From sequence record NZ_CP019209.1: a stretch of DNA of 64,000 nt; one strand, 5' to 3'. Of this stretch, positions 1 through 21,152 are shown in pieces. The stretch is from a plasmid. The first letter of the stretch is position 1. Every line of letters starts with the position of its first letter. A program made the position numbers and the translations under genes. The notes under the pieces were generated by a model. The model saw only the letters and a program-made list of their open reading frames with translations. It made no database searches and was not told the origin of the DNA.

Positions 1-118
1 TATCTCAAAGAATTTGAATAATGGATATGATGCAAATCTTGTTTGTACTAACGTTGTATTGACAAAAAGGATTTTATTTAGTACAATGTTAGTACAAATG
101 ATGAACGGAGGTAGAATC

Positions 119-352
119 ATGTCTCAATCAACCATTACATTTAGGATTCCCGACGATGAAAAAGAACTGGTATTAGAATATGCAAAAGCACACAATTCTT
201 CATTGACCGAACTTTATCGAAATGCTGTACTGGATAAAATCGAAGATGAAATCGATCTACGGACTTTACGGAGTGCAATTGAAGTTTCCAAAGAGAAAAA
301 AGAGAGTGGTATTTCTCAAGAGGAAATGGAGAAACTGCTAAATGAATTATAA
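119..352 (+). CDS. RelB/DinJ-like type II antitoxin (ribbon-helix-helix)
   Basis: Small acidic protein MSQSTITFRIPDDEKELVLEYAKAHN... Its stop overlaps the downstream RelE-like toxin start by 11 bp, the usual toxin-antitoxin operon layout. The ORF track extends the start to 14; the internal ATG at 119 is preferred. Confidence 0.6.
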   Translation: MSQSTITFRIPDDEKELVLEYAKAHNSSLTELYRNAVLDKIEDEIDLRTLRSAIEVSKEKKESGISQEEMEKLLNEL

Positions 353-611
353 AGTCATCTACATGCCGCAAGCCCAGAAGCAATTAAAAAAAATGGACAG
401 AAACCAAGCTAAAATAATTGTCGCCTGGATCAGAAAGAATTTAGAAAACACGACTGACCCGCGTCAGCACGGAAAAGGTTTGACTGGAAATAAGAGTGGG
501 GAATGGCGCTATCGAATTGGAAACTATCGAATATTGGCTAATATTTGTGATTCTGAAATTGAAATCCAGATATTCTCAATTGGACATAGAAGTACAATAT
601 ATAAAAGATAA
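342..611 (+). CDS. RelE/ParE-family type II toxin
   Basis: 89-aa basic protein (…GEWRYRIGNYRILANICDSEIEIQIFSIGHR…), typical RelE/StbE length and C-terminal motif pattern. Its start overlaps the upstream antitoxin. Confidence 0.65.
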   Translation: MNYKVIYMPQAQKQLKKMDRNQAKIIVAWIRKNLENTTDPRQHGKGLTGNKSGEWRYRIGNYRILANICDSEIEIQIFSIGHRSTIYKR

Positions 612-723
612 CCGTTTTTGGAACGAAGTAGAGTTTCGAAAGTCAATGTATAATCTTTTGAATTTTGCATAATACCACAGGTAGAAACTACCCGATACTA
701 TCGGTTGGTTTCTGCTTTTTTAT

Positions 724-2216: not shown

Positions 2217-2316
2217 TTTTTTTGGTCTTGAAGAAGAAAAGTAAGCGCCCCATAGAACAGTACCTGTACGTCAAATAACCCGACCTATAGAATAGAATCG
2301 GGAATGTTTGGCGTTT

Positions 2317-3864
2317 TTAGTTACGAGAAAAATGTTGTTGTACATCCTTGTTCCAAGGCAACAGTTGATCTAAAGTTTCTGCTGAAAGTACGGGAAGATT
2401 TGGTATCTTATCAAATAGAAACTCTAGATACTTTACAGGATTCAATCCGTTAAGTTCTGCTGTTTTATATACACTCAGAATGATTCCTGAAGTTCGTGCT
2501 CCTTCAAGACTTGTGGAATGCAACCAATTTTTCCGTCCTATCACCAGCTCTTTGATATTTCGCTCCGCACGATTATTTGTGAGTTCTAAACGACCATCTT
2601 CAAAAATAGGTTCAAAACCACTTCGTAGTTTACACGCATATTGAACGGCTGCATCCAACTTGGATTTTGCAACAGGATCTATCGTTGCCATCCACTCATA
2701 AAAAGCAATAAATAATGGACGCAGTTCTTGTTGCCGACAGCTTAATCGCTTCTCAGGAGAAAAGTCTTTCCATTTCTTTTCTAGGACAAACCATTTATCC
2801 AATTGTTTGACTGCTTGAGCTGCGGGAATATCCGTGTTTTTCTTTCCTTTTGGAATTGCTTCGAAAAATTTCCGCCGAACATGCGCGAAACAATAGACAA
2901 GTCGTACACTTTCCACGGCATTATACCCGCTATAGCCGTCACAGTGTAAATACCCTGTAAACTCCTTGAGAAAAGTTTTCGGAACATCTCCAGCACGACT
3001 TTCGTCGTGGTGATAATAAACGATGGGATGCTGACTGTCTTTTCCTGTACAAAACTGCCAGTAATAGGTATCTGTTTTGGCACTTTCAATCACACGATAA
3101 CTTGTTTCATCCCCGTGTAGAATCTCTTCTTGATTAAGATAGACTCTTAATCGTTCTCCTAAAGGGTCTAACGCGTTTTGCACTGCTTTAATATGCCAAT
3201 TGGTGATATTATCTCTCGAAATATCCAACCCATGTGTTTGTTTCCAATAGTTCTCTTGCCGATAGGCAGGAACTTTCTGACCAAATTTCATCCGGATCGT
3301 TTCCGCCACTAAACTATTGGAACCTAAGCTATTAGAAATCAAAGGTTTAGGAACGATCGCTTTTTTAAAAGAAGAAAGTCCTTCTTTTTCGCAGCTTTTA
3401 CAACAATAGGTATGTTGATAATGGGTGAGACAATCCAACATAGCCTGATGGAAACGAATTTCTTCTCGTACTTTTGTCCGTCCGATATCTTTCATCTGTG
3501 AACCGCAATGTTCACAAAATTGTTCTTCCAAAGGAAGGAGATGTTCTTTCTCTGTTATAGGTAAGTGTTTGATTTTGTCTGCTTTCGTTCCTACAACTCG
3601 TTGATGTCCTTTTACTGGAATAATGGTGGCAGCTGCTTCTGGAACACTTACAGAAATTTCTTCATCACTAAAAAGATTCAATTGCCCATTCGTTTCCTCA
3701 AAGAGAGTCTCTTTAGAGCGTCCAAATAATTTGTTGGTTAAATAATTGACCTTTTCATTCAATAGTTGGATTTCAGTTGTAAGATTCTGAATGGTTTGTT
3801 GTTGTGCTTGATTGGTTTTATGGGCTTCTTGAAGCAACTGAAGCAACGTATCTGTAGTTTCCAA
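2317..3864 (-). CDS. IS66-family transposase TnpC
   Basis: 515 aa with an N-terminal coiled coil and zinc finger (CEHCG…CCKSCE), typical of IS66 TnpC. Confidence 0.85.
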   Translation of the reverse strand: METTDTLLQLLQEAHKTNQAQQQTIQNLTTEIQLLNEKVNYLTNKLFGRSKETLFEETNGQLNLFSDEEISVSVPEAAATIIPVKGHQRVVGTKADKIKHLPITEKEHLLPLEEQFCEHCGSQMKDIGRTKVREEIRFHQAMLDCLTHYQHTYCCKSCEKEGLSSFKKAIVPKPLISNSLGSNSLVAETIRMKFGQKVPAYRQENYWKQTHGLDISRDNITNWHIKAVQNALDPLGERLRVYLNQEEILHGDETSYRVIESAKTDTYYWQFCTGKDSQHPIVYYHHDESRAGDVPKTFLKEFTGYLHCDGYSGYNAVESVRLVYCFAHVRRKFFEAIPKGKKNTDIPAAQAVKQLDKWFVLEKKWKDFSPEKRLSCRQQELRPLFIAFYEWMATIDPVAKSKLDAAVQYACKLRSGFEPIFEDGRLELTNNRAERNIKELVIGRKNWLHSTSLEGARTSGIILSVYKTAELNGLNPVKYLEFLFDKIPNLPVLSAETLDQLLPWNKDVQQHFSRN

Positions 3865-3965
3865 AATTTTTCACCACCTTGAATCGAACTGATTTTGTTA
3901 CAGAATACCACAAGAAACGCACAAGAAATAGGGGTTCAACACATTTTTTGTGTTAACCCCCCAGC

Positions 3966-4319
3966 TTAAAAAACTCCTTTTTTTCCTGGCAAAATAGCTC
4001 GAGGTTGATCGATACTTAATCCTTCTAACAACCATCGAACCTGTTGGTTCGTTAAGGTTCGAACTTCGTCTTTCGTCCGAGGCCATTTTAACTTGCCGTT
4101 TTCTATCCGCTTATAACAGAGAAGAAAACCATCACCGTCCCAATAGAGAAGTTTGAAACGGTCTTGACGGTTCCCGCAAAATAAAAAAACGGCATCTTCG
4201 TAAAGCTCGAGTTGATACTCTTGTTGAATAAGACTGGCAAGACCATCAATTCCTTTTCGCAAATCTGTTTTTCCGCACACAATATAAATATGTTTGGTTT
4301 GAAGTAAATCATAAAGCAT
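3966..4319 (-). CDS. IS66 Orf2 (TnpB)
   Basis: 117 aa with the conserved IS66 Orf2 sequence (…YIVCGKTDLRKGIDGLA…LFCGNRQDRFKLLYWDGDGF…). Confidence 0.85.
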   Translation of the reverse strand: MLYDLLQTKHIYIVCGKTDLRKGIDGLASLIQQEYQLELYEDAVFLFCGNRQDRFKLLYWDGDGFLLCYKRIENGKLKWPRTKDEVRTLTNQQVRWLLEGLSIDQPRAILPGKKGVF

Positions 4320-4503
4320 TGGACAACAGTTCTTTCAAAATAGCTTGAAGAATATAATTGTTAATACCGTTATAGATCAAAACTTCAGAACCATTCTCTC
4401 TTTTGATGCGCATCGCTAACTTGGCAGCCGCGGGTTTACCTTTTTCTGGTGCACTCTTTTCGTTTCCTAATTGGACAGGAACAATCTCATTTAATTTATA
4501 CAT
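4309..4503 (-). CDS. IS66 Orf1 (TnpA) accessory protein
   Basis: Small ORF immediately upstream of tnpB, overlapping it, inside the IS66 inverted repeats. The start is taken at the internal Met (MYKLNEIV…). Confidence 0.55.
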   Translation of the reverse strand: MYKLNEIVPVQLGNEKSAPEKGKPAAAKLAMRIKRENGSEVLIYNGINNYILQAILKELLSNAL

Positions 4504-4581
4504 AGAAGACCTCCAGACTTCTTGATAGCTCAAGTATATCTTGAGGTGCATTTGTTAGTAAGGTACTGTTCTATGGGGCGC

Positions 4582-5874
4582 TTACGTTAAAAATGTTTTG
4601 CTATGACGAATCATAATTCGTAGTTTGAAATTGTAAAAGTTGCGAAAGCCGTACGCATTGCGTTTTAATACTTTGATGTGGTTGTTTAAGCATTCCAATG
4701 GTCCGTTTGAATAGCTGTAGTGAAGCGCATTTTGGATCTGTGGCAGAAACTTTTTAAACGTTCGTAAAGTGGTTGTATAGGTTTCTGGCAGACCGCTAAT
4801 GTCTCTAGTTAAACAATCCTCAAATAGTGACTGATCTCTTTTCTTTACCGCATAAAGAATGTCTTGGTATAACTGATAGCCTTGGCGTAAGTTGGGACAA
4901 GCAGCTAACAGTCGATCGGCAATCTCACTTTCAGTCAAATAATCTTTAAAACTGGCACGCCAAACCCGTTTTTCATAGTTTAACTTTGCTTCTTCTTTTT
5001 GTAGGAGTTTCCAATAGCGCTTCAATTTTTTCCCTAACCCTCGTTGAGAGTGGGAATTTCCTTTAAGTCGTACCGTGGTTTCTTTCACTCGATGATTCAA
5101 GAAAGTTCTGCCAATATGTTGGACGATGTGGAAACGATCGATGATCAACTGAGCATTCGGGAAAAGCTTTTTCACCAACGAAACATAAGGCGCATACATA
5201 TCAATAACAATCAATTGAACGGCTTCACGAGTCGCTAATGAAAACCGAGAAAAATAGCGTTCTAAATAAGGCAAGCGTCGATTTTCGACAATATCCAATA
5301 ATGCATGGCTTTGTCCGTCCATCATGATAAAACTCATTGCACTGGCAACACTTCGAACCGATTTGAATTCATCAAAGCATAAGACCTTTGGCAAAGTCTG
5401 TTTGAAAGGATTCAATGGGCGGTAGAATCGCTTCATGACACGATAGACCGAAGAAGTGGAAATATTTTTCTGACGAGCGATTTCCGTCATGGAAGTATTC
5501 TCTTTTAAGCGAGCAATGACAGACCAACGAACTTTTTGACTAATGAAACAGTGTTTTTCAGCAACAGAGGTATCCGCTACGAATGTTCTTTGGCAAGACT
5601 TACATTTAAATCGTTGTTTCTTCAGCTCCAGATAAGTGCGATACTCAGACACATCATTCAGTAACAACCGAACGGTTGTCGTCCCCCAACGAATGATCCT
5701 AGAGGGGACGACACAAAGACAATGGGAACACTCTTCTGGCTTGTACAGAAGAGTTCCTTTGTAAATCAAGCAAATTTGCCCTTTGTATTTTTCTTTAGTT
5801 AAACAATTTTCCTCGAAATAGATATTTAGGTCTAGAATATTTAGGGTATCTTTGATAAGCTGAGTATGAGACAT
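4582..5874 (-). CDS. ISL3-family transposase
   Basis: 430 aa with an N-terminal zinc finger (CSHC…CKSCQ) and the ISL3 transposase core. It is related to, but distinct from, the 790-2127 copy. Confidence 0.8.
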   Translation of the reverse strand: MSHTQLIKDTLNILDLNIYFEENCLTKEKYKGQICLIYKGTLLYKPEECSHCLCVVPSRIIRWGTTTVRLLLNDVSEYRTYLELKKQRFKCKSCQRTFVADTSVAEKHCFISQKVRWSVIARLKENTSMTEIARQKNISTSSVYRVMKRFYRPLNPFKQTLPKVLCFDEFKSVRSVASAMSFIMMDGQSHALLDIVENRRLPYLERYFSRFSLATREAVQLIVIDMYAPYVSLVKKLFPNAQLIIDRFHIVQHIGRTFLNHRVKETTVRLKGNSHSQRGLGKKLKRYWKLLQKEEAKLNYEKRVWRASFKDYLTESEIADRLLAACPNLRQGYQLYQDILYAVKKRDQSLFEDCLTRDISGLPETYTTTLRTFKKFLPQIQNALHYSYSNGPLECLNNHIKVLKRNAYGFRNFYNFKLRIMIRHSKTFLT

Positions 5875-5998
5875 CTTGAATCCTCCTATGAATTGGTAGC
5901 CAAATTAATTCTAAAGGATTTCAGGGTGTCTTTTCTATATTTTTTTTATACAAATAATTCACCAAAAAGGTGAGTAATGCCATTTTTGAAAATTGAGC
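4586..5998 (-). mobile_element. Second ISL3-family insertion sequence, abutting the IS66
   Basis: A 430-aa ISL3-type transposase sits directly after the IS66 right inverted repeat. Boundaries are approximate because the terminal repeats are imperfect. Confidence 0.55.
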
Positions 5999-6117
5999 TT
6001 GTTTTATGTCTACATCTGTATCCGTATATAATCCAAAGGATTATAAACTCAGAAGAGTCTTTATTTTTTCTGAATATAACTACTGTATCAAAAACAATCG
6101 ATTATGAGACAAAACAA

Positions 6118-6158
6118 AATGACCTCTTTTATTTAAGAAAGGAGGTCATTTTTTGTAT
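6118..6158. terminator. Bidirectional rho-independent terminator
   Basis: Hairpin AATGACCTC…GAGGTCATT followed by a T-run, with a T-run on the opposite strand as well. Confidence 0.4.
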
Positions 6159-6496
6159 CATAAATTGTATTAAAATCAATGTATCACTTTTTAATCAGTT
6201 TTAAGACCATAAATTGCGTACTAAAAGAAATTCTGCAATTCAAAATAAAGCATTTTAAGCCATTTTCAAATTTAAGTGCACCCATCTACCCGTCAAATCA
6301 CTTTATTTTCCACTCCAGTAGTTTCCTAATTCAACTGTGTGCAAAAACGATTTCTTCTAAACAAATCAAGACAAACTTATAAACCTTCATCCCAGCACCA
6401 TAATTATTTAAATCATAGGCATTTTTCGAAATTAGTATATGTACTCAAGTTTCACTGCAGATTATTTATATTTTTTAGAGAAATAAATTTTTCCTA

Positions 6497-6565
6497 TTGA
6501 CAAACACAAAGAAAGCGGATACAATGCAATTATGTCACATGACGTTATATGACGTTATGTGATAT
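6497..6565 (+). promoter_or_regulatory. Sigma-A-type promoter with tandem ATGACGTTAT operator-like repeats upstream of the frl-like operon
   Basis: TTGACA, a 17-bp spacer, then TACAAT. Immediately after comes TCACATGACGTTATATGACGTTATGTGA, a direct repeat embedded in a palindrome, about 70 bp upstream of the first gene. Confidence 0.4.
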
Positions 6566-6630
6566 CTTTACATTTAATCAGTTACTTTTATTTTGGATAA
6601 AATTAACATTTTTAAAATTTTAAGGAGGAA

Positions 6631-7605
6631 ATGTTGATGGATGTAGCAAAAACGGTTAACGCAATTGTAGAAAAAAATGATGGAGAGATTTCTGGAATTT
6701 ATTTGGTGGCTTGTGGCGGTTCGCTGGTAGATATGTATGTCTCAGATTATTTTCTTAAAGCCGAAGCATCGAAGTGTATTACAGGCTTATATACAGCGAA
6801 CGAATTTAACCATGTAACCCCAAAGCAATTAGATGATAAATCTGTTGTCATTCTATGTTCTCATGGAGGAAATACAGCAGAAACGGTAAAAGCAGGAGAA
6901 GTCGCTCAAGCTAGAGGAGCTGTGACTGTTGGTCTGACTCATAATAAAACTGCGGATTTATTAAAGGTTTCTGATCATAGTTTCCTTTACGAATGGGGAG
7001 ATGATGCAAAAATAGTCAATAATCCTATGGCCATCATTCTTGATTTAACTGTATCTTTGGTCAATGTTACCGAAACATTTGAACATTACGGTAAATTCAG
7101 AGAAGGCATGAAGGTTATCGATACCGTAATTGAAAATGGCATTAAGCAGGTGCAGGATCGTATTAAAGTGTTTGCTGATAAGTACAAAGATGAAACAATG
7201 TTTTATATCTTAGGTAGTGGACCATCATATGGACATGCTTATGGTTTTTCAATTTGCTCTTTGATGGAAATGCAATGGCTTGATTCAACTTCTGTTCATT
7301 CTGGAGAATTCTTCCATGGACCTTTTGAAGTAACAGACAAAGATACGAATTTTATTCTCTTGATGAGCATTGGACGCACTCGTGCTTTAGATGAACGGGC
7401 AAAACGATTCCTTGATAAATATGCAGAAAGAGTAGAAATCGTTGATGCAAAGGAACTAGGATTGGATATGATATCAGATGAAGTTTCTGAATTCTTCAAT
7501 CCCATTTTATTCTACAGTATTCTTTCAGAATATCGTTCAGCTTTAGCAGATGTACGCAATCATGATTTAGATGTTCGTCGCTATATGGGGAAAGTGGAGT
7601 ACTAG
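6631..7605 (+). CDS. Tandem-SIS-domain sugar-phosphate isomerase/deglycase (FrlB-like fructosamine-6-phosphate deglycase)
   Basis: 324 aa with two SIS domains. It lies in an operon with an FrlD-like kinase and a GntR/HutC regulator. Confidence 0.65.
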   Translation: MLMDVAKTVNAIVEKNDGEISGIYLVACGGSLVDMYVSDYFLKAEASKCITGLYTANEFNHVTPKQLDDKSVVILCSHGGNTAETVKAGEVAQARGAVTVGLTHNKTADLLKVSDHSFLYEWGDDAKIVNNPMAIILDLTVSLVNVTETFEHYGKFREGMKVIDTVIENGIKQVQDRIKVFADKYKDETMFYILGSGPSYGHAYGFSICSLMEMQWLDSTSVHSGEFFHGPFEVTDKDTNFILLMSIGRTRALDERAKRFLDKYAERVEIVDAKELGLDMISDEVSEFFNPILFYSILSEYRSALADVRNHDLDVRRYMGKVEY

Positions 7606-7616
7606 GAGGATTAAAA

Positions 7617-8431
7617 TGAAGGTATTAGGCTTAGGTGATAACGTCGTCGATAAATATGAAAATCTGGGAATTATGTATCCTGGAGGAAATTCATTGAATT
7701 TTGCAGTTTTTGCAAAAAAACTGGGACATGAAAGTAGCTTTATGGGAGTTTTTGGCTCAGATGAGGAGGCAGCTCATGTTTTATCAGCAATAAAAGAAAT
7801 AGGACTGGACAACAGTCACTCTCGCTTTGAAAAAGGCGAGAATGGCTGTGCCAGAGTGAAGATTGATGAGGGCGACCGGATTTTCCTTGGCAGCAATTCG
7901 GGAGGTGTTACTCGTGAATACCCGATTCAGCTTACTGAAGAAGACAGAGAATATTTAAACCAGTTTGAATTGATTCATATGGGATTATATAGCCATGTCA
8001 ATCATCTATTAGAAGAGTTACAAAATGTTTCTGGAAAGATTTCTTATGATTTTTCTGACGACTTTACGGAAGAAGAGGTTCAGCGGGCAATTGATAAAGT
8101 TGATTTTGGCTTCTTTTCTATAGAAGACTTTTCCGATGAAGAAGTAAAGCAGTTTTTGATGAAGCATTTTTGTGAGCGAAATGATGTATTGATTGCAACC
8201 CGAGGAGAAAAAACGGCTATTGGTTATGATGGAGCAAAGTTTTATGAAGTGAACCCCGTGCTAGAAGAACCAGTTGATACAATGGCAGCGGGAGATTCTT
8301 TCTTAACAGCTTTCCTACTTTATTTTCTCGAAGGGGACGATATAGTCACCGCGATGAAAAAGGGGAATGAATTTGCTGGGAAGTCTTGTCTGGTTGACGG
8401 TTCGTTCGGCTTTGGTATTCATTACGATTGA
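7617..8431 (+). CDS. PfkB-family sugar kinase (FrlD-like fructoselysine 6-kinase)
   Basis: Carries the motifs GLGDNVVDKY, YDFSDDF and DTMAAGDSF, which match the FrlD/ribokinase signature. Start taken at the internal MKVLGLGDN. Confidence 0.7.
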
Positions 8432-12265: not shown

Positions 12266-13666
12266 ATGGAAACAATGAAAAGAAAATTCACCTTCCCACA
12301 TAGTTATACATTGATTTTTATCTTAATTATTTTGGCTGCAATTTTAACTTGGATAATTCCTAGTGGTCAGTTTGAGACAGTTGTTGAAAACGTCGCAGGT
12401 ATGGAAAAAACAACGGTTGTTCCGGGAACCTATCACCAAATCGATAAGGCAGATTATGGACAAGGTTTTTCCTCTATACTAATGGCACCAGCTGAAGGGA
12501 TTATTTCAGCTGTTGAGGTTGTTGCTTTTGTTCTCATCGTTGGTGGTGCCTTCGGGATTATCCTAAAAACGGGAGCCATCGATCGAGGGCTGTTTACCTT
12601 AGCAAAAGTTCTGGGAGACAAGGGGATCTTAGTTATTCCGATGTCGATGATTCTATTCAGCTTAGGAGGATCAACCTTTGGCATGAGCGAGGAAGTCATT
12701 CCCTTATTTGCGGTGTTTATTTCTCTGATGTTTTCTCTTGGCTATGATTCCATGACTGCGATCTTGATTCTATTTTTAAGTACACAAGCGGGATATGTTG
12801 GGTCGACGATTAATCCCTTCAACGTTTTAATCGCACAGGGAGTAGCTGGCGTTTACGGAAATCCCCTGCTTTGGTTTCGGATGCTATCCTGGATTGTCAT
12901 TACTGGGATTTCAATTGTTTTCACCATGCTTTATGCTAGCAGAGTCAAAAAGAATCCACTGTCCTCTATTGTTTATGAGAGTGATTTAAAGGTTAAGCAT
13001 AAGTTTCAAAATTTTGACACTGAAAAAGAGTTTTCAACACAAGATAAACTAATTATCGCCGGTTTTATCGTAGGTTTAGGAATCATGATTTGGGGTATCA
13101 TTTCCAAGGGATGGTATATGGTTGAAATTTCTGCACTATTCTTAGGATTAGGTCTTTTTGCTGGGGGCATCGCTAGATTTTCTCAAAAGGAAATTGCTGA
13201 AGCTTTTGTCGAAGGCTGTTCAGATTTCGCCTATGCTGCTGTAATCATTGGGCTAGCTAGAGGAGTCTTGGTAATCTTGGAAGGTGGAATGATTATTGAC
13301 ACTATTCTAAACAGCTTGGCTAACCTTTTAGGTGGTCTTCCAAAATTCCTGTTCACTACGATTCTACTCATTTCTCAAGTAATTGTTTCCTTTTTTGTTC
13401 CATCCTCCTCAGGAGCTGCGGCATTAACGATGCCGGTTATGGCACCATTGGGTGATCTAATGAATGTAAGTCGTGATGTTGTTGTTCTAAGTAACCAGTT
13501 TGGAAATGGTTTAATGAATATTATCTCCCCAACTAGTGGTGTATTACTGGCAGGATTAGCCATCGCAGAGATTAATTTCTCTAAATGGTTTAAGGTTGGC
13601 TTCAAAATATTTGCCATCTTAACCCTTGTTTCTGCTGTTTTGTTATACATTGCTACACTCTTTTAG
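12266..13666 (+). CDS. YfcC/DcuC-like polytopic membrane transporter
   Basis: 466 aa, highly hydrophobic with about 12 transmembrane segments. The architecture resembles YfcC-family transporters often found beside amidohydrolases. Confidence 0.55.
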   Translation: METMKRKFTFPHSYTLIFILIILAAILTWIIPSGQFETVVENVAGMEKTTVVPGTYHQIDKADYGQGFSSILMAPAEGIISAVEVVAFVLIVGGAFGIILKTGAIDRGLFTLAKVLGDKGILVIPMSMILFSLGGSTFGMSEEVIPLFAVFISLMFSLGYDSMTAILILFLSTQAGYVGSTINPFNVLIAQGVAGVYGNPLLWFRMLSWIVITGISIVFTMLYASRVKKNPLSSIVYESDLKVKHKFQNFDTEKEFSTQDKLIIAGFIVGLGIMIWGIISKGWYMVEISALFLGLGLFAGGIARFSQKEIAEAFVEGCSDFAYAAVIIGLARGVLVILEGGMIIDTILNSLANLLGGLPKFLFTTILLISQVIVSFFVPSSSGAAALTMPVMAPLGDLMNVSRDVVVLSNQFGNGLMNIISPTSGVLLAGLAIAEINFSKWFKVGFKIFAILTLVSAVLLYIATLF

Positions 13667-13698
13667 TCTTAATCATCCATTAATAGGAGGCAATAGTT

Positions 13699-13845
13699 AT
13701 GATTAAAATAAATCAATTAGCAGGAATGAATATCCACTATTTATTTTATTCTCTCAAAGAATTTTTCGCTTATCAACAGAAAATTGGTATTTCTTCTGTT
13801 GAACTTTGGGGAGGTGCTCCGCATTTTTTCATAGATGCTTTTACT
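13699..13845 (+). pseudogene. Sugar-phosphate isomerase/epimerase (xylose-isomerase-like TIM barrel, FrlC-like) N-terminal fragment, truncated by IS1216
   Basis: Good ribosome-binding site, then MIKINQLAGMNIHY…GISSVELWGGAPHFF… The ORF ends exactly where the IS6 inverted repeat GGTTCTGTTGCAAAG begins. Confidence 0.4.
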
Positions 13846-14654
13846 GGTTCTGTTGCAAAGTTTTAAATCTACTATCAAATAAGGTAGAATAATAGAAAAA
13901 GATAGCAGGAGGAATGACGATGAATCATTTTAAAGGAAAGCAATTTCAGCAGGATGTGATTATTGTAGCCGTGGGCTACTATCTTCGTTATAACCTTAGC
14001 TATCGTGAAGTTCGAGAAATCTTATATGATCGTGGCATTAACGTTTCTCATACGACGATTTATCGTTGGGTGTAAGAATATGGCAAACTACTCTATCAAA
14101 TTTGGAAAAAGAAAAATAAAAAATCCTTTTATTCATGGAAAATGGATGAAACGTACATCAAAATTAAAGGAAAATGGCATTATTTGTATCGAGCCATCGA
14201 TGCAGATGGTTTAACCTTGGATATTTGGTTACGTAAAAAACGGGACACACAAGCAGCCTATGCTTTTCTTAAGCGGTTAGTGAAGCAGTTTGATGAACCG
14301 AAGGTTGTAGTCACAGATAAAGCCCCCTCTATTACAAGTGCCTTTAAGAAACTAAAAGAATACGGCTTTTATCAAGGGACAGAACATCGTACCATTAAAT
14401 ACCTGAATAATTTGATTGAACAAGACCATCGTCCAGTAAAGAGACGCAATAAATTCTATCGAAGTTTACGCACTGCCTCTACCACGATTAAAGGCATGGA
14501 AGCCATCCGAGGATTATATAAGAAAACCCGAAAAGAAGGCACTCTCTTCGGGTTTTCGGTCTGTACTGAAATCAAGGTATTATTGGGAATCCAAGCTTAA
14601 ATCATAGATACCGTAAGGGACTTTATTCTTTATTTAAAACTTTGCAACAGAACC
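13846..14654 (+). mobile_element. IS6-family IS1216-like element, copy 1; transposase inactivated by a nonsense mutation
   Basis: Terminal inverted repeats GGTTCTGTTGCAAAGTTT…AAACTTTGCAACAGAACC. The transposase frame has a TAA at about 14073, where the intact copy 2 has CAA. Confidence 0.8.
13918..14600 (+). pseudogene. IS1216-like transposase with premature stop (Q to stop near codon 53)
   Basis: Identical to the 228-aa transposase of copy 2 apart from the TAA. The ORF track splits it into the 14005-14214 and 14142-14600 pieces. Confidence 0.75.
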
Positions 14655-14731
14655 TAAAGCATTCCCAAAGAAAACATGCTAAAATCGAGACAGAAATGAT
14701 TTTCGTGTGAGGTCTGATTGGAGAGAAAATA

Positions 14732-15592
14732 ATGAACATTGAAAAATTTATTACGGCAAGAAAGGCTGCCAACTTATCTCAAAAAGAAGTGTCTGAAGGA
14801 ATTTGTACACAAGCAACATTAAGTAAATTTGAGAACAATGGTCAAGTCCCTTCGTTAAAAATTTTAATCAAATTATGTAATCGAATCAATCTTCCGTTAG
14901 TTGAACTTTTTTCTTCGATGAACGTGATCAATACACAACTTGATGAACAGCTAGAAAAAGCAGAGTTTTCACTGATTACGAGTGAATATGAACAATTGAC
15001 ACAGATTTTAGCAGCCATTGATCCCAAGGTAATTGACGAGTCTGAGCTGATTGCACGTTACTACTATCTAAAAGGATTTGAAATGATTTTTACGAATGCA
15101 CCAATTACGGATGTGTTGTTCCATTTTGATCAGTTGTTGATGGCAGAAACAGCCAACACGTTGTTTCGTTTATTGGCATATACAGGTATTGGAATGGTCT
15201 ATGCTAGAGAAAAAGAGTTGGAAAAAGCAGAAGTTTATTTCAATCGAGTGTTTGAAAAAATTTATACGTATCCGATTCGTACAACAGAAGATATCTGGCG
15301 GGTGTTAAATATCGTCTTTCATTGTGGTGTTTTTTTTGCGCAAGACGGTGATTTGGAAACAAGTGATGCACTACTAAATTACGCAATCGATATTTGTTCG
15401 GATAACCATTTGACTTATTACTTAGCACGAGCTGCTGCCCAATTAGCGAAGAACGCACAGGCTAAAAATAAGTCGAAGGCAGAAGTGCTCGAATTGATTC
15501 AAGATGCACTAGCTTTTGCTAAAATTAATAAAAACAAAAAATTAATTGATGAATTAAATCATATGAAAAAAATGATACTATTGATTAACTAA
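14732..15592 (+). CDS. Rgg/MutR/GadR-family transcriptional regulator (XRE HTH plus helical repeat domain)
   Basis: 286 aa with an N-terminal HTH (…LSQKEVSEGICTQATLSKFENNGQVPSLKILIKLCNRINLPLVELF…) and a C-terminal TPR-like domain typical of Rgg regulators. No convincing short hydrophobic peptide gene is nearby. Confidence 0.75.
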   Translation: MNIEKFITARKAANLSQKEVSEGICTQATLSKFENNGQVPSLKILIKLCNRINLPLVELFSSMNVINTQLDEQLEKAEFSLITSEYEQLTQILAAIDPKVIDESELIARYYYLKGFEMIFTNAPITDVLFHFDQLLMAETANTLFRLLAYTGIGMVYAREKELEKAEVYFNRVFEKIYTYPIRTTEDIWRVLNIVFHCGVFFAQDGDLETSDALLNYAIDICSDNHLTYYLARAAAQLAKNAQAKNKSKAEVLELIQDALAFAKINKNKKLIDELNHMKKMILLIN

Positions 15593-15794
15593 GGAAAAAA
15601 TACTTATTTTTGTTATGCTAACTTTGAAAAAATTCACCAAAGATGATTAGGGATAGACGGGTATGGCAGCAAGATAGAGTAATAAAATAAAGTCGTAATT
15701 ATCGTAAAATACGTTACAAAGCATGCTTGATCTCCGTTTGTCGTTGCAGTATTTATTTTAAGTAGGTTAACCATCAAATAGAAAACGATAGTTA

Positions 15795-15850
15795 GAGGGA
15801 AATAAGCAACACACAAAAATGTGTTGTTTGTTTCCCTTATTTGTTTTTTT
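15795..15850 (+). terminator. Rho-independent terminator
   Basis: Imperfect hairpin GGGAAATAAGCAACACAC…GTGTTGTTTGTTTCCC followed by TTATTTGTTTTTTT. Confidence 0.4.
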
Positions 15851-15908
15851 ACAATATAAAATTTTATATTAAAATTACCTTATTATATAAAAAAATATAT
15901 AAAATCGG

Positions 15909-15943
15909 TTGACAAATAAATCTAGCAGGCGTATCATCTGGTT
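15909..15943 (+). promoter_or_regulatory. Candidate sigma-A promoter for the ApbE/FMN-reductase operon
   Basis: TTGACA, a 17-bp spacer, then TATCAT, about 100 bp upstream of the ApbE start. Confidence 0.35.
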
Positions 15944-16012
15944 GTGAAAACAGTAACAAAAATAAAAACTAATTACTCATGTAATCCGTAGTTCAAGTAA
16001 AGAAGGTACAAA

Positions 16013-16945
16013 ATGAATCAGGTGATCGAAGAAACGAAAATCTGGCAAATGATGGGGACAACAATTACATTACAAGTTGGGCATGAAGAGCCTAGTCGAT
16101 TACTAGCAGAGTTAGGCGAATGGTTGCACGTTTATGAACATCGCTTCAGCGCACATGATGCAACTTCTGAATTAATGGCCATCAATCAAGCTGCTGGACG
16201 ACAAGCTGTGATTGTACATCCTGAACTTTTTGAGCTCATCAAATTAGGAAAAGCACATAGTTGTGCAAGAAATAGTTATCTGAATATTGCTATTGGTCCG
16301 GTTGTACAAAAATGGCACATTGGATTTGAAGATGCATTGGTTCCAACAAAAGCAGAGATAACTGAGTTACTTCTGCTAACGGATCCACACCAAATTCAAT
16401 TAGATGAAAAAATGAAAACCGTTTTTTTAACCAAACCAGGAATGATGATTGACTTGGGGGCGTTAGCAAAAGGTTACATTGCAGATAAATTAATTACACA
16501 TTGCCGAGAGCGAAATGCAGCGTTTGCTTTAGTTAACTTAGGAGGAAATATCGTTGTTTTTGGTGAATCACCAAGACGTTCGGATGGTGCTTGGCGTATT
16601 GGTTTGCGAAATCCTAAAGGTTCACGTGAAGAGTCGCTTGCGGTGGTTAAACTAAACAACCAATCTTTAGTTACCTCTGGAATCTACGAACGTTATCTAC
16701 AAAATGGTTCGTCAGTGTATCATCACATCATTGATCCGAAAACTGGCTTTCCAGTTAAAAATGACGTAGCAAGCCTGACGATTTTGTCTGATTCTTCTGT
16801 AGATGGAGAAATCTGGACTACACGTTTATTTGGAGCATCTTCTTTAGAAGTGTTGAAAGCGCTTGAAGAACAGCCGGGTATCGAGGGAGCAGTTGTAACA
16901 AAAGAGAATCAATTCTTGTATACAAAAGGATTTGAAAAAATTTAG
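16013..16945 (+). CDS. ApbE-family FAD:protein FMN transferase, with no signal peptide (predicted cytoplasmic)
   Basis: 310 aa with the conserved ApbE motifs (…DLGALAKGYIADK…, …YHHIIDPKTG…). No lipobox or signal peptide at the N-terminus. Confidence 0.75.
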   Translation: MNQVIEETKIWQMMGTTITLQVGHEEPSRLLAELGEWLHVYEHRFSAHDATSELMAINQAAGRQAVIVHPELFELIKLGKAHSCARNSYLNIAIGPVVQKWHIGFEDALVPTKAEITELLLLTDPHQIQLDEKMKTVFLTKPGMMIDLGALAKGYIADKLITHCRERNAAFALVNLGGNIVVFGESPRRSDGAWRIGLRNPKGSREESLAVVKLNNQSLVTSGIYERYLQNGSSVYHHIIDPKTGFPVKNDVASLTILSDSSVDGEIWTTRLFGASSLEVLKALEEQPGIEGAVVTKENQFLYTKGFEKI

Positions 16946-16987
16946 TACGTGCGAACAGTCAGAAATCGATGTTAGAAAGGAAAGAGA

Positions 16988-17599
16988 ATGAAGATGAAAT
17001 TTATTGGATTAGTAGGAACAAATTCAACGCGGTCAACAAACCGTGAATTATTACAGTTTATGAAAAATTATTTTGTAAATGAGGCAGAAATCGAAATTGT
17101 CGAAATCAAGGAGCTGCCACTATTTAACAAACCTGAAAACACAGAACTACCAAATGTTGTTAAAGAAATTGCTGGAAAAATTGAACAAGCAGATGGCGTA
17201 ATCATCAGCACACCAGAGTATGACCATGCGGTTCCTGCTTCATTGATTAACGCATTAAATTGGCTTTCATATGGTATTTTTCCGTTTGTGGATAAACCAG
17301 TGATGATTACCGGAGCGTCTTATGGCACGTTAGGTTCTTCACGCGCACAAGCACATTTGCGCCAAATATTGGATTCACCAGAGTTAAAGGCACGAATTAT
17401 GCCAAGCTCAGAATTTTTATTGGGTCATTCACTCCAAGCCTTTGATGAGCAAGGACGACTCATTGATGAAGAACAAGTCGCAAAATTACGTGAACTATTC
17501 AAAGATTTCTTACTCTTTGTCACAATCACTAGTCAATTGCAACATGCGCACCAAGCAAATAAACGTGAAGCCGAAAGCTTTTCATGGGAAACGATTTAA
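16988..17599 (+). CDS. NADPH-dependent FMN reductase (flavodoxin-like fold)
   Basis: 203 aa (MKFIGLVGTNSTRSTNRELL…ISTPEYDHAVPASLINALNWLS…), the typical FMN_red / SsuE-like signature. Confidence 0.7.
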   Translation: MKMKFIGLVGTNSTRSTNRELLQFMKNYFVNEAEIEIVEIKELPLFNKPENTELPNVVKEIAGKIEQADGVIISTPEYDHAVPASLINALNWLSYGIFPFVDKPVMITGASYGTLGSSRAQAHLRQILDSPELKARIMPSSEFLLGHSLQAFDEQGRLIDEEQVAKLRELFKDFLLFVTITSQLQHAHQANKREAESFSWETI

Positions 17600-17618
17600 T
17601 CGAGGGGAGCAAACAAAG

Positions 17619-18839
17619 ATGAAATTAATAGGTATCGTCGGATCAGCAGCTGAACTTTCATATAACCGTAAATTATTAACATTTATCCAAAAACAATATC
17701 ATGAACTATTTAATTTAGAAATCATTGAAATCAAAGATTTACCTCTGTTCAATCAAGATGATGATCAAACAAATAGTCCTGCTATTCAACAGCTAAATCG
17801 CAAAATCTTAATGGCTGATGGGGTAATTATTGCTACGCCAGAACACAATCATACGGTTCCAGCAGGATTGAAAAGTGCACTTGAATGGCTATCATTTAAA
17901 ATCCATCCACTTGAAAATAAACCTGTAATGGTTGTGGGTGCTTCTTACTACGATCAAGGAACTTCACGCGCGCAATTACACTTGCGCCAAATTTTGGACG
18001 CACCAGGCGTGAATGCATTAGTGATGCCCGGAAATGAATTTTTATTGGGAAAAGCAAAAGAAGCATTTGACCAAGAAGATCGCTTGATTGATCCACGAAC
18101 TGTTGACTTTTTAGGCAGTACATTAGCAAGTTTTGTAAAATTCATTAAAGTCGTGTCTACCTTAGCAGGGCCTAAAAAGCTTCCACCAGAAGATTTGCAT
18201 GCGACAGGAACAATTGCTACGACAATACCCGATGTTGATATGTCAGATGATCATTGGTTGGAAAAAGCTTCTGAAGCAGTCGGTGCCGTTTCTGGAAATA
18301 CTTACGTCAAATTAAATCGTGGGTTATTGACAGTGGATCAAATCAATTACTTTTTAGATTCGATGCCGATGGAATTAACTTTTGCAGATAATAATAACCA
18401 ATTTTTATATTATAATTTGCGCCAAGAAGCGAAAGAGATGTTAGCTGCTCGTGTGCCCGGTCAGGTAGGGAATCCATTAGCCAACTGTCACCCAGAAAAA
18501 TCGTATAAAAATGTAGAGTGGGTAATTCAACAACTGCGAAGCGGAGCAACAGATGCGGTACGTGTTCATGTACCAAAACAAGTGCCAGAAAAATATATTG
18601 TGCATAATTACCAAGCAATGCATGATGAAAATGGAGAGTATGCTGGAATCAATGAATACATTCTTGATTTCAAACCAATCATTGAGTGGTATTTACAACA
18701 AACGGGTCAACAACTTGTTGGAAATGAAGATGCGGTTTCAAGTGCATCTGTTCATGGTGGAAAAACAGATGCAGTAACCAGCGCCAGCACACACGATGAA
18801 ACTGCAGTAGATGCAGTTTCGAGTGCTTCTGTAAAATAA
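17619..18839 (+). CDS. NADPH-dependent FMN reductase domain fused to a DUF438-like domain, with three tandem C-terminal DAV[ST]SAS motifs
   Basis: The N-terminal 180 aa are paralogous to the upstream FMN reductase. The C-terminal half has a DUF438-like CHP motif (…NCHPEKSYKNVEWV…). The last 45 aa read DAVSSASVHGGKTDAVTSASTHDETAVDAVSSASVK. True start taken at MKLIGIVGS (17619), not the extended ORF-track start at 17442. Confidence 0.6.
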   Translation: MKLIGIVGSAAELSYNRKLLTFIQKQYHELFNLEIIEIKDLPLFNQDDDQTNSPAIQQLNRKILMADGVIIATPEHNHTVPAGLKSALEWLSFKIHPLENKPVMVVGASYYDQGTSRAQLHLRQILDAPGVNALVMPGNEFLLGKAKEAFDQEDRLIDPRTVDFLGSTLASFVKFIKVVSTLAGPKKLPPEDLHATGTIATTIPDVDMSDDHWLEKASEAVGAVSGNTYVKLNRGLLTVDQINYFLDSMPMELTFADNNNQFLYYNLRQEAKEMLAARVPGQVGNPLANCHPEKSYKNVEWVIQQLRSGATDAVRVHVPKQVPEKYIVHNYQAMHDENGEYAGINEYILDFKPIIEWYLQQTGQQLVGNEDAVSSASVHGGKTDAVTSASTHDETAVDAVSSASVK

Positions 18840-18842
18840 AAA

Positions 18843-19651
18843 GGTTCTGTTGCAAAGTTTTAAATAAAGAATAAAGTCCCTTACGGTATCTATGATTTAA
18901 GCTGGGATTCCCAATAATACCTTGATTTCAGTACAGACCGAAAACCCGAAGAGAGTGCCTTCTTTTCGGGTTTTCTTATATAATCCTCGGATGGCTTCCA
19001 TGCCTTTAATCGTGGTAGAGGCAGTGCGTAAACTTCGATAGAATTTATTGCGTCTCTTTACTGGACGATGGTCTTGTTCAATCAAATTATTCAGGTATTT
19101 AATGGTACGATGTTCTGTCCCTTGATAAAAGCCGTATTCTTTTAGTTTCTTAAAGGCACTTGTAATAGAGGGGGCTTTATCTGTGACTACAACCTTCGGT
19201 TCATCAAACTGCTTCACTAACCGCTTAAGAAAAGCATAGGCTGCTTGTGTGTCCCGTTTTTTACGTAACCAAATATCCAAGGTTAAACCATCTGCATCGA
19301 TGGCTCGATACAAATAATGCCATTTTCCTTTAATTTTGATGTACGTTTCATCCATTTTCCATGAATAAAAGGATTTTTTATTTTTCTTTTTCCAAATTTG
19401 ATAGAGTAGTTTGCCATATTCTTGCACCCAACGATAAATCGTCGCATGAGAAACGTTAATGCCACGATCATATAAGATTTCTTGAACTTCACGATAGCTA
19501 AGGTTATAACGAAGATAGTAGCCCACGGCTACAATAATCACATCCTGCTGAAATTGCTTTCCTTTAAAATGATTCATCGTCATTCCTCCTGCTATCTTTT
19601 TCTATTATTCTACCTTATTTGATAGTAGATTTAAAACTTTGCAACAGAACC
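18843..19651 (-). mobile_element. IS1216-like IS6 element, copy 2 (intact)
   Basis: 809 bp with the same 18-bp inverted repeats and an intact 228-aa transposase. Confidence 0.85.
18897..19583 (-). CDS. IS6-family (IS1216) transposase
   Basis: 228 aa (MTMNHFKGKQFQQDVIIVAVGYYLRYNLSYREVQEILYDRG…), the canonical IS6 DDE transposase. Confidence 0.9.
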   Translation of the reverse strand: MTMNHFKGKQFQQDVIIVAVGYYLRYNLSYREVQEILYDRGINVSHATIYRWVQEYGKLLYQIWKKKNKKSFYSWKMDETYIKIKGKWHYLYRAIDADGLTLDIWLRKKRDTQAAYAFLKRLVKQFDEPKVVVTDKAPSITSAFKKLKEYGFYQGTEHRTIKYLNNLIEQDHRPVKRRNKFYRSLRTASTTIKGMEAIRGLYKKTRKEGTLFGFSVCTEIKVLLGIPA

Positions 19652-19930
19652 AAAGAACTCATCAAGCTGGCTAATAAGGGTCAAGATTATGAACATCTAG
19701 CAGATGAGATTGATGAGCTGAGAGACAAGCGACAGCTCCTTTTAGTAGAAGATGCCTCCCTCAGTGGCGAGAACGAGCGAATCAATGAGCTGATTGAATT
19801 TATCCGCAAGAACAAATTCCGTACCTTAGAGTACGATGATAAGCTTGTAAGGAAGATAATCCAGAGCGTTACAGTCTATGAAGAACACTTCGTCATATCC
19901 TTCAAATCTGGCATCGAAATGGAAATATGA
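19652..19930 (+). pseudogene. C-terminal remnant of a large serine recombinase, truncated by IS1216
   Basis: …RINELIEFIRKNKFRTLEYDDKLVRKIIQSVTVYEEHFVISFKSGIEMEI* resembles the extreme C-terminus of TndX/TnpX-type large serine recombinases. The ORF begins inside the IS inverted repeat, so the gene is truncated. Confidence 0.35.
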
Positions 19931-20072
19931 AAACCAGAAGTAAATAGCCCATGATTCTACAGTAGAGTCGTGGGTTTTCTTTTGCTTGCTGATTATAATA
20001 ATATTTTAATAACTATTGTTATTATAAACCAAATGATTTATAATATTCTTAGCGTAAACTTGGAGGTGCTGT

Positions 20073-20294
20073 ATGACTACGGCAGAAATGATTAAAGAAC
20101 TGTGTGAGCAAATGAATATAAGTGTTTCCGAACTTGCTAGACGTATTGGACAGACTCCACAGAATTTCAATAAGAAATTACAACGAGAAACGGTAACCTT
20201 AGATGAGTTGAAAGCGATTGCTGATGTGCTAGGTGTCAAGTTTGTGCAGGCTTTTATATTGCCTGATGGCAATGAAATAAAGATAGGTAATTAG
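20073..20294 (+). CDS. XRE-family helix-turn-helix transcriptional regulator
   Basis: 73 aa (MTTAEMIKELCEQMNISVSELARRIGQTPQNFNKKLQRE…), the classic Cro/C1-type HTH. Confidence 0.65.
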   Translation: MTTAEMIKELCEQMNISVSELARRIGQTPQNFNKKLQRETVTLDELKAIADVLGVKFVQAFILPDGNEIKIGN

Positions 20295-20309
20295 GAGGTG
20301 TAATTTGTA

Positions 20310-21152
20310 TTGAAAATCATAACAATAAATGATGTTGAGTATGCTGTATTTGCTGCTAATGAAGGTACTTCCAAACCACAACCTCATATCATAGAAACGA
20401 AATCTGGTACTATTCCAGAAGGAAAACAACTGAGTTTATTAAAAGAATATCTTAAGCAGAATGATATTTCCCCAATAAAAGGAGCAACAACATATTGGTG
20501 CATTGACAAGGTTCTTAAGCTTGATTCAAGTAAAGAAAAAACTATAAGTGAAACAATCCATAAACAAAAATACTTATCTTTAACTGAAGAAAATATTGAG
20601 AAACAGCATAAGTTTGTAGGTGCAAGCTCTAATTATGGGAAAGAAGGTCTAATAATACATGATGTTTTGAATGCATTTCCTCTTCATAATGATTTAAATA
20701 CTATTGCGATGAAGATTGCGGTAATTGATGTAACAAATTCAACACATCTTTCTCAATATAAGAGCAGGTTGTCTCTATATGATTTGGCTAAAGTAATTCT
20801 GGAGATTCCAAATTTTGATGATCGGTTGGCAAAAGGAGATCCTCAGTTGATAAATATTATCGCAAGGAACATTGGTGCAGTTAATATGTTCTCATTTGCA
20901 TCCAAGTACTGTACATATCATAATGTGGAAGTGTGTGGGAGAGATGATTACTCCATCTTTGATGGTATCGTTAAAAATACTCTTCCACACTATATCCAAG
21001 GACTAACTACGAATAAGATTGATACGTGGCGAAGAAGTTTTGATTACGAGGCATTTAACGAATGTGTTGGAAAACTACTTGATGAAAATAATATACATAT
21101 TCCTTTTAGAAGAAGAAAGTTAGATCACTTCTTGTGGTATGCGAATAGGTAG
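20310..21152 (+). CDS. Hypothetical protein (280 aa), AT-rich, no recognisable domain
   Basis: Long ORF with a ribosome-binding site (AGGAGGTG) and a TTG start, directly downstream of the XRE regulator and upstream of the exonuclease-fusion gene. The sequence is not recognised. Confidence 0.4.
   Translation: MKIITINDVEYAVFAANEGTSKPQPHIIETKSGTIPEGKQLSLLKEYLKQNDISPIKGATTYWCIDKVLKLDSSKEKTISETIHKQKYLSLTEENIEKQHKFVGASSNYGKEGLIIHDVLNAFPLHNDLNTIAMKIAVIDVTNSTHLSQYKSRLSLYDLAKVILEIPNFDDRLAKGDPQLINIIARNIGAVNMFSFASKYCTYHNVEVCGRDDYSIFDGIVKNTLPHYIQGLTTNKIDTWRRSFDYEAFNECVGKLLDENNIHIPFRRRKLDHFLWYANR

Follow-up and report, generated by a model that had tools for sequence, protein, structure and literature searches.

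Within a 64,000-nucleotide stretch of an Enterococcus faecium plasmid (sequence record NZ_CP019209.1; this whole stretch is called the window below), a segment between two copies of the insertion sequence (IS) IS1216 holds four genes, encoding a regulator, an ApbE-type flavin adenine dinucleotide (FAD):protein flavin mononucleotide (FMN) transferase, a short FMN_red-family reductase subunit, and a second FMN_red domain fused to a PAS_10 domain with a C-terminal tail (Table 1). Comparison of the sequences leads us to consider it probable that a conserved four-gene operon is present here in full, encoding a cytoplasmic flavin reductase that would attach its own flavin. The motif that ApbE recognises is D-x-x-S/T-S/G-A-S/T, and the final 38 residues of the fusion protein (NEDAVSSASVHGGKTDAVTSASTHDETAVDAVSSASVK) contain three copies of it. 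Because of these tail motifs, the fusion is a likely ApbE substrate. When all six-frame open segments of at least 80 residues across the window were scanned with the pattern D..[STA][GS]A[ST], the three tail motifs were the sole matches.

Conserved motifs in the tail of the fusion protein

The motifs are a shared property of the family. One to four of them were found in 119 of the 120 closest homologues, and in all 78 fusions of normal length from loci collected with one genome per species (one motif, n = 1; two, n = 37; three, n = 31; four, n = 9), with a median spacing of 15 residues, the last motif ending 2-4 residues from the C-terminus in 75 of these 78, and linkers that were not conserved. 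In an AlphaFold2 model built from a 62-sequence alignment, the FMN_red part (residues 1-183) and the PAS_10 part (residues 229-362) were confidently modelled, and the tail (residues 369-406), with a predicted local distance difference test score (pLDDT) below 30, is predicted to be disordered. Judged from these alignments, the tail looks like a disordered stretch in which selection maintains a short linear motif. The FMN_bind model (PF04205) gave no match in the fusion, and a match of DUF2271 to the tail stayed below threshold (E 0.042, 14 bits vs a cut-off of 27.3). Fusion tails of Lapidilactobacillus (L063, L070) carry the variant D-x-V-A-S-A-S, with Ala at position 4, and DAVAGAS occurs in two further proteins (P0043, P0113); these variants point to D...(G/S)-A-(S/T) as the sole strict requirement.

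Both reductase genes matched FMN_red (PF03358; for the fusion 1e-36 over residues 1-147), in agreement with an earlier reading of the sequence alone, which had proposed two FMN reductases, and the two are paralogues, with 48% identity over 182 residues between the 203-residue subunit and the first domain of the fusion. The same sequence-only reading had named DUF438 as the fusion partner; the domain proved to be PAS_10 (PF13596, 1.6e-30), and the DUF438 model (PF04282) did not match the fusion even at E ≤ 10. The PAS_10 domain resembled the C-terminal domain of Streptococcus mutans SMU_1151c (PDB 2qkp) both by sequence (3.9e-22) and by fold (template modelling (TM) score 0.85). For the start of the fusion gene, the ATG at 17619 coincides with the Prokaryotic Genome Annotation Pipeline (PGAP) annotation, is preceded by a ribosome-binding site (GAGGGGAG) and gives an N-terminus common to the orthologues, which supports it over a 465-residue open reading frame (ORF) from a TTG at 17442 that we rejected as the fusion gene.

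The transferase was unambiguous at the domain level, with 245 bits to PF02424 over profile positions 1-263 of 266 and a match of 2.5e-57 to PDB 7esa. Its Pfam domain begins at residue 14, behind 13 hydrophilic residues, and neither a lipobox nor a hydrophobic stretch was found at its N-terminus. Among 73 orthologous ApbEs, 72 had 8-31 residues ahead of the domain with no hydrophobic segment or lipobox; in the remaining one, the ORF seems to have been called too long. Because the ApbE orthologues show no such stretch ahead of the domain, the system is, by its N-terminal sequences, cytoplasmic; both reductases begin directly at the first β-strand. The description of an ApbE without signal peptide and of a transferase and likely substrate that are both cytoplasmic, given in the sequence-only reading, was therefore sustained when the N-termini were re-analysed for a lipobox or signal peptide.

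The four genes form a conserved unit

A genome scan with one genome per species returned 80 loci, most of them on large contigs, from Lactobacillales and Bacillales, and the locus was chromosomal and syntenic in many of them (Enterococcus, Vagococcus, Trichococcus, Carnobacterium, Desemzia, Marinilactibacillus, Alkalibacterium, Atopostipes, Lapidilactobacillus, Amphibacillus, Oceanobacillus and other genera). The short FMN_red gene stood directly 5' of the fusion gene in 80/80 loci, and apbE lay within the locus in 73/80, usually just upstream and sometimes just downstream; in the window it is two genes upstream of the fusion. The regulator gene was present within 8 kb in 54/80 loci, mostly directly upstream on the same strand and usually abutting apbE. 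No other family, for example a transporter or an acceptor enzyme, was linked in more than 12 of the 80 loci, so that what lies between the two IS1216 copies is the conserved unit and nothing more.

The suggestion that this was an uncharacterised module did not survive these comparisons. The set turned out to be largely a common conserved chromosomal operon of known function, syntenic and spread over 80 species; flavinylated FMN_red proteins were described in 2024 (PMC11334425), and an FMN_red pair, FRedA/FRedB, with a PAS_10 protein was characterised in 2015 (PMC4500961). The kind of system is thus one already described in Lactococcus and Lactobacillus, and it is the link of the tail to a PAS_10 subfamily that is a new lead.

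Table 1. Positions in the window of the IS1216-bounded genes, their domains, motifs and regulatory DNA
Feature	Position	Strand	Basis
Left IS1216 copy (IS6 family), 809 bp	13846-14654	+	Repeat search; 23-bp perfect terminal inverted repeats
Leader 5' of the regulator gene, with extended -10-like TGCTAAAAT	14655-14731	+	Identical in E. thailandicus and Ca. E. courvalinii
Regulator, 286 residues: XRE-type helix-turn-helix (HTH), then all-helical TPR-like domain (RRNPP fold, PlcR/ComR/Rgg-like)	14732-15592	+	Pfam, AlphaFold2, Foldseek
Terminator-like hairpin 3' of the regulator gene, 19-bp stem, then T run	15795-15838	+	Sequence
Promoter-like site 5' of apbE, TTGACA-17-TATCAT, 11/12 matches	15909-15937	+	Consensus match only
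ApbE FAD:protein FMN transferase, 310 residues, without signal peptide or lipobox	16013-16945	+	PF02424, PDB 7esa
FRedA-like FMN_red subunit, 203 residues, no flavinylation motif	16988-17599	+	PF03358, 2.9e-34
Fusion, 406 residues: FMN_red 1-183, linker with N-terminal cap, PAS_10 229-362, tail 369-406 (predicted disordered)	17619-18839	+	Pfam, AlphaFold2
PAS_10 domain of the fusion, tail-bearing subfamily, extra C-terminal helix WYLxxTGQxLV	18303-18704	+	PF13596, PDB 2qkp
Flavinylation motif 1, DAVSSAS, residues 371-377, predicted FMN acceptor Ser377	18729-18749	+	Motif scan
Flavinylation motif 2, DAVTSAS, residues 384-390, predicted FMN acceptor Ser390	18768-18788	+	Motif scan
Flavinylation motif 3, DAVSSAS, residues 398-404, predicted FMN acceptor Ser404, 2 residues before the C-terminus	18810-18830	+	Motif scan
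Right IS1216 copy, 809 bp, transposase intact (18897-19583, 228 residues)	18843-19651	-	Repeat search, Pfam

Relation to described flavinylated and paired flavin reductases

In Klebsiella fumarate reductase, the flavinylation site lies in a folded FMN_bind domain. The fusion has no FMN_bind domain; its motifs stand on a disordered tail that follows PAS_10. Seen from the account of the Klebsiella pneumoniae system given in PMC12052999, the likeness lies in a signal-less, cytoplasmic ApbE that serves a cytoplasmic oxidoreductase, the substrate there being a soluble fumarate reductase; cytosolic ApbEs, such as that of Klebsiella, do exist, and seven-residue flavin tags at a protein terminus are fully flavinylated by ApbE (PMC12052999). 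With the engineered flavin-tag of Tong, Lee, Drenth and Fraaije (2021), as reviewed in PMC12052999, the tail shares the short seven-residue terminal motif and looks like tags in tandem; the flavin-tag is an artificial labelling tool, whereas the motif here is natural, repeated and conserved.

Closer to the present system, Huang, Meheust, Barquera and Light (2024) described ApbE-associated Firmicutes FMN_red proteins with one to two C-terminal motifs on an unstructured extension, and showed that Lactococcus lactis WP_021723379.1 and L. taiwanensis WP_205872264.1 were flavinylated with their own ApbE and that a Ser/Thr-to-Ala change abolished this (PMC11334425). Common to their proteins and ours are FMN_red, the disordered C-terminal extension with motifs, an adjacent or co-located apbE and the occurrence in Firmicutes; the fusion has three motifs where theirs have one to two, and PMC11334425 makes no mention of PAS_10, a second FMN_red subunit, a cytoplasmic location or a regulator. 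A plasmid and chromosomes of L. lactis were found to carry apbE, FMN_red and a 403-residue FMN_red-PAS_10 fusion with two copies of DATSGAS, the motifs being on the fusion only. At the plasmid locus (L083; pUC11A, 1-7871), the gene order apbE, FMN_red, FMN_red-PAS_10-tail is the same as here and the fusion is 55% identical to that of the window, whereas a Crp/Fnr-family regulator lies nearby where the RRNPP-fold regulator stands here. The operon genes of this locus adjoin nrdI-nrdE-nrdF, encoding a class Ib ribonucleotide reductase in which NrdI is flavodoxin-like, and this neighbourhood may be a coincidence or may hint at a partner that uses reduced flavin.

The second described system is that of Lactobacillus johnsonii, where two consecutive FMN_red proteins, FRedA and FRedB, form an obligate heterodimer with two FMN sites at the interface; the complex is specific for reduced nicotinamide adenine dinucleotide (NADH), makes superoxide and H2O2 by one-electron transfer to O2, does not reduce menaquinone or menadione, and binds free FMN with a dissociation constant (KD) of ~2 μM (Valladares 2015, PMC4500961). 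Its PAS_10 partner, LjPAS, slowed assembly of the active FRedA/FRedB complex, and fusions of the PAS protein with the reductase occur in further lactic acid bacteria (Lp_2732, EF1227) (PMC4500961); the work of Hertzberger (2014), as cited in PMC4500961, also concerned the L. johnsonii system. Two consecutive paralogous FMN_red genes and a PAS_10 protein are what the two systems have in common. They differ in that the L. johnsonii PAS protein is separate and encoded elsewhere, and in that FMN was supplied free, with neither ApbE nor covalent flavin considered.

On these analogies, a mechanism can be proposed for the operon in which ApbE would take FMN from cytosolic FAD and link it as a phosphoester to the Ser that closes each motif (Ser377, Ser390 and Ser404). 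By analogy with FRedA/FRedB, the 203-residue subunit and the fusion would pair into a heterodimer whose interface holds two flavin sites, NADH would reduce the tail-held flavins as captive cofactor or substrate, and O2 or another small acceptor would receive the electrons from the reduced flavins, with superoxide and H2O2 as products in the case of O2. PAS_10 would hold the tail beside the reductase and modulate its activity, and tethering would keep a weakly bound flavin on the enzyme, given the KD of free FMN in L. johnsonii.

The sequence-only reading had suggested reduction of quinones, azo or nitro compounds as a possible use. Developed into a detoxifying role, this would make the pair a ChrR/YieF/AzoR-type two-electron reductase of such compounds or of metals, with the covalent FMN simply stabilising the cofactor. 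We regard this as distinctly unlikely. The closest solved relatives of the FMN_red domain of the fusion are indeed YieF/ChrR (3svl, 3.1e-24), FerB and azoreductases, and its fold matched 1rtt, 3svl and 3u7r, yet the nearest characterised two-gene homologue, FRedA/FRedB, rejects menaquinone and menadione and transfers single electrons to O2, and no transporter or xenobiotic-related gene is conserved beside the operon.

Several observations weigh against the proposal of a reductase that attaches its own flavin, or limit its reach. Three motifs, as in the window protein, or four, and up to eight in relatives, outnumber the two flavin sites of a heterodimer. FRedA/FRedB were likened to the window proteins by gene arrangement and description. 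Going by the L. lactis locus, the protein of that species tested by Huang et al. very probably belongs to the same PAS_10-containing family; WP_021723379.1 was not among the entries returned when the exact sequence of the L. lactis fusion was looked up. In the plasmid copy, IS1216 begins 3 nucleotides past the stop codon of the fusion gene, and the native terminator, which lies 3' of the fusion gene in E. thailandicus, is gone. Finally, standalone PAS_10 proteins of ~200-260 residues without FMN_red also have tail motifs (L065, L066 and P0475 of Lactobacillus hamsteri), and because these proteins carry the tail without a reductase domain, the tethered flavin may serve PAS_10 rather than the reductase pocket.

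If the annotation proposed here is right, it offers a testable function for genes that, on at least 94 E. faecium megaplasmids, most of them of clinical origin, bear only the labels 'NAD(P)H-dependent oxidoreductase' or 'PAS domain-containing protein'. Should the complex resemble its L. johnsonii relative in making H2O2 or consuming O2, the plasmid could influence how oxygen is tolerated or how its host competes in the gut. Natural tandem 'flavin-tags' may also interest protein engineers.

The tail accompanies a subfamily of PAS_10 domains

The PAS_10-plus-tail part of the fusion was searched against 1.84 billion representative proteins and the matches were inspected. PAS_10 proteins fell into two groups: 62/62 tail-less representatives, including those of the DUF438 type, had no motif after the PAS domain, and the tail-bearing group had an additional helix, WYLxxTGQxLV, followed by one to eight motifs. 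The tail thus follows the PAS_10 subfamily and not FMN_red. From this distribution we tentatively propose, as a possibility that we hold with less than even confidence, that the flavinylated tail is a hallmark of this subfamily, that PAS_10 and its tail together make up a portable module for covalent flavin whose FMNs on a flexible arm serve as captive substrate or electron carrier of FRedA/FRedB-type reductases, and that LjPAS is an unrecognised ApbE substrate. Were this true, LjPAS would be no plain regulator, and the in vitro work of 2015 would have used apo-protein. The link between PAS_10 and the tail also joins two literatures, that on ApbE substrates and that on the H2O2-producing flavin reductase of lactobacilli; in the searchable library, we found neither a literature link between PAS_10 and flavinylation nor work on the E. 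faecium module.

The same distribution bears on another explanation, in which the system is a redox sensor: the tethered FMN would dock in PAS_10 and not in the FMN_red pocket, and the redox state of PAS_10 would switch the reductase on or off. In its favour are the association of the tail with PAS_10 and not with FMN_red, the standalone and lipoprotein PAS_10 forms that carry motifs without FMN_red, the lack of a motif in every tail-less PAS_10 representative, and the slower assembly of active FRedA/FRedB in the presence of LjPAS. We nonetheless think it unlikely: PAS_10 has no known flavin-binding residues and searches gave no ligand information for the solved PAS_10 structures 2qkp and 3cax, up to eight motifs per protein are hard to square with one sensor pocket, and Cys290, which sits at the place of the LOV-domain cysteine, lacks conservation in the tail-bearing group as a whole. 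All fusions have Cys290-His291-Pro292; we rejected Cys290 as a LOV-like cysteine because it is not conserved in the wider tail-bearing group, and the His-Pro pair occurs in tail-less PAS_10 proteins as well.

Further variants of the module were seen among the matches. The standalone genes (L065, 4111-4803; L066, 1247-1954; L092, 6001-6747, encoding P0475) specify 230-248 residues with two to three motifs. P0475 of L. hamsteri, with 248 residues and three motifs, corresponds to LjPAS in genus and size and was all that a search for LjPAS turned up; neither apbE nor FMN_red was found within 6 kb of the P0475 gene. Lipoprotein forms of tail-bearing PAS_10, with an N-terminal lipobox, were also present (P0292 of Dolosigranulum pigrum, P0294, P0303 and P0318), P0292 having internal FMN_bind-like motifs in addition, and from these N-termini the tail-bearing PAS_10 module appears to occur outside the cytoplasm too. 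Giant variants (L038, 1464-3680, 738 residues; P0042, 711 residues) consist of FMN_red, PAS_10, a multi-motif tail, a second PAS_10 and a second tail.

The regulator and the regulatory DNA

The sequence-only reading had taken the first gene for an Rgg-type regulator. At the level of fold this was close, since the AlphaFold2 model (pLDDT 88.9) placed the protein among RRNPP regulators in a Foldseek search, with PlcR as the best match (E 5e-9, TM 0.62-0.65), ahead of ComR (~1e-5), Rgg2/3 (Rgg2 ~4e-4) and PrgX, the E-values extending to about 1e-3 (Rgg2, PrgX); at the level of family it failed. Pfam recognised HTH_3 (1.6e-11), HTH_19 and weak TPR matches, Rgg-specific sequence models (Pfam, and the C-terminal domain of NCBIfam) gave no match to the regulator even at E ≤ 10, and the name Rgg appeared on none of the 120 homologues listed among 449 found. 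With PlcR, ComR, Rgg2/3 and PrgX the regulator shares an N-terminal XRE-type HTH and a TPR-like helical domain of the same size; it differs from them in matching no Rgg or PlcR sequence model, in having no conserved small peptide gene beside it, and in abutting apbE in most genomes, as a member of a small family of 449 proteins that travels with the operon.

Searches for a partner peptide gene were negative, with no credible small ORF in 15593-16012 and none conserved 5' of the regulator across 16 loci. One candidate, a 16-codon ORF (MLLNKQKQKTIDILTN) just 5' of the regulator gene in E. thailandicus (L003, 4988-5038), was rejected as a partner peptide gene because its ATG is not kept in Ca. 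E. courvalinii. The stop codon of the MLLNKQKQKTIDILTN ORF is the first triplet of the segment shared with the plasmid, at the IS1216 junction, and the ORF is probably no gene, the conserved DNA there looking promoter-like. From its sequence, we infer a promoter role for the leader that opens the segment. Regulator gene and apbE are kept apart in the plasmid copy by the strong terminator-like hairpin and the near-consensus promoter, from which (~15909-15937) the regulator would control an apbE-fredA-fusion transcript. An Rfam scan of 13000-20500 at E ≤ 1 gave no match, and therefore no FMN riboswitch.

IS1216 copies, plasmid distribution and origin of the segment

Two inverted IS1216 copies around exactly four genes had been reported in the sequence-only reading, and coordinates and gene count were both correct. 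The pair forms the core of an 822-nucleotide inverted repeat in the window; a 12-nucleotide extension of this repeat was rejected as not being a real match. Four positions distinguish the copies, both of which end in 23-bp terminal inverted repeats without mismatch, and the transposase is named 'IS6-like element IS1216 family' in RefSeq, the intact right-hand one containing the DDE_Tnp_IS240 domain. The left transposase ORF (13914-14600) is interrupted at codon 54, where C>T at 14073 turns CAA into TAA (stop 14073-14075). The left copy is intact in other plasmids and contigs, and the split ORF is shared by at least one other (L088).

That the four genes are packaged as a potentially mobile unit, as had been suggested, is doubtful. 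Movement of IS6-family elements through a cointegrate followed by resolution requires direct repeats. As in the pseudo-compound transposons of the IS6 family (IS26/IS1216), two copies bracket a cargo on an enterococcal plasmid; unlike in those, the copies here are inverted, an 8-bp target duplication is missing and one of the transposase genes is a pseudogene. No 8-bp duplication was found in any combination of the flanks (CTTTTACT/TAAAGCAT and AATAAAAA/AAAGAACT), and a search for an outer flank common to both copies found none.

The 4188-bp segment between the copies had full-length matches in 94 E. faecium plasmids of ~170-380 kb, the 25 listed being 100% identical and none of the 94 falling below 99%, and was also present on several contigs of ~2.9 Mb. 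A chromosomal scaffold of E. thailandicus matched it at 99.3% identity and Ca. E. courvalinii at 88.5%, and in both the identity ends exactly at the IS1216 ends. Outside the IS copies, the DNA varies among plasmids and the ~2.9-Mb contigs and is a mosaic of other IS elements, the left outer flank being DcuC, or ParE followed by another IS1216, and the right one the HTH/exonuclease block described below or a sucrose operon. A single capture followed by IS1216-mediated recombination or reshuffling of the flanks fits these data, and repeated transposition of a composite element does not; the inverted copies, the absence of target duplications and the broken left transposase point the same way. 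IS1216 would thus have captured the unit once, and it is now carried by E. faecium megaplasmids.

The operon on the megaplasmid might be passenger DNA, carried along by chance in IS1216 recombination without being selected for any function on the plasmid. A broken transposase, inverted copies without target duplications, the lost terminator and the mosaic flanks all agree with such a view, which we consider very unlikely, because all four ORFs are intact, the promoter-like sites are kept, and the segment is so nearly invariant across the 94 plasmids and occurs on the ~2.9-Mb contigs as well.

DNA flanking the IS1216 copies

Each IS1216 copy cuts into a neighbouring ORF. The left copy truncates a small ORF (MIKINQLAGMNIHYLFYSLKEFFAYQQKIGISSVELWGGAPHFF...) at 13699-13845 that, by eye, looks like the start of a TIM-barrel protein of the sugar-phosphate isomerase/epimerase type. 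The right copy truncates an ORF at 19652-19930, of which ~90 C-terminal residues are left; by eye, this remnant resembles the C-terminus of a large serine recombinase, and it had no Pfam match. Further 3' of the right copy (20073-21152 onward) lie an HTH_26 gene and a gene with an HI_0787_N domain, joined in matching plasmids by an RNase_T-type exonuclease gene, and this HTH_26/HI_0787_N/exonuclease block is kept in several plasmids.

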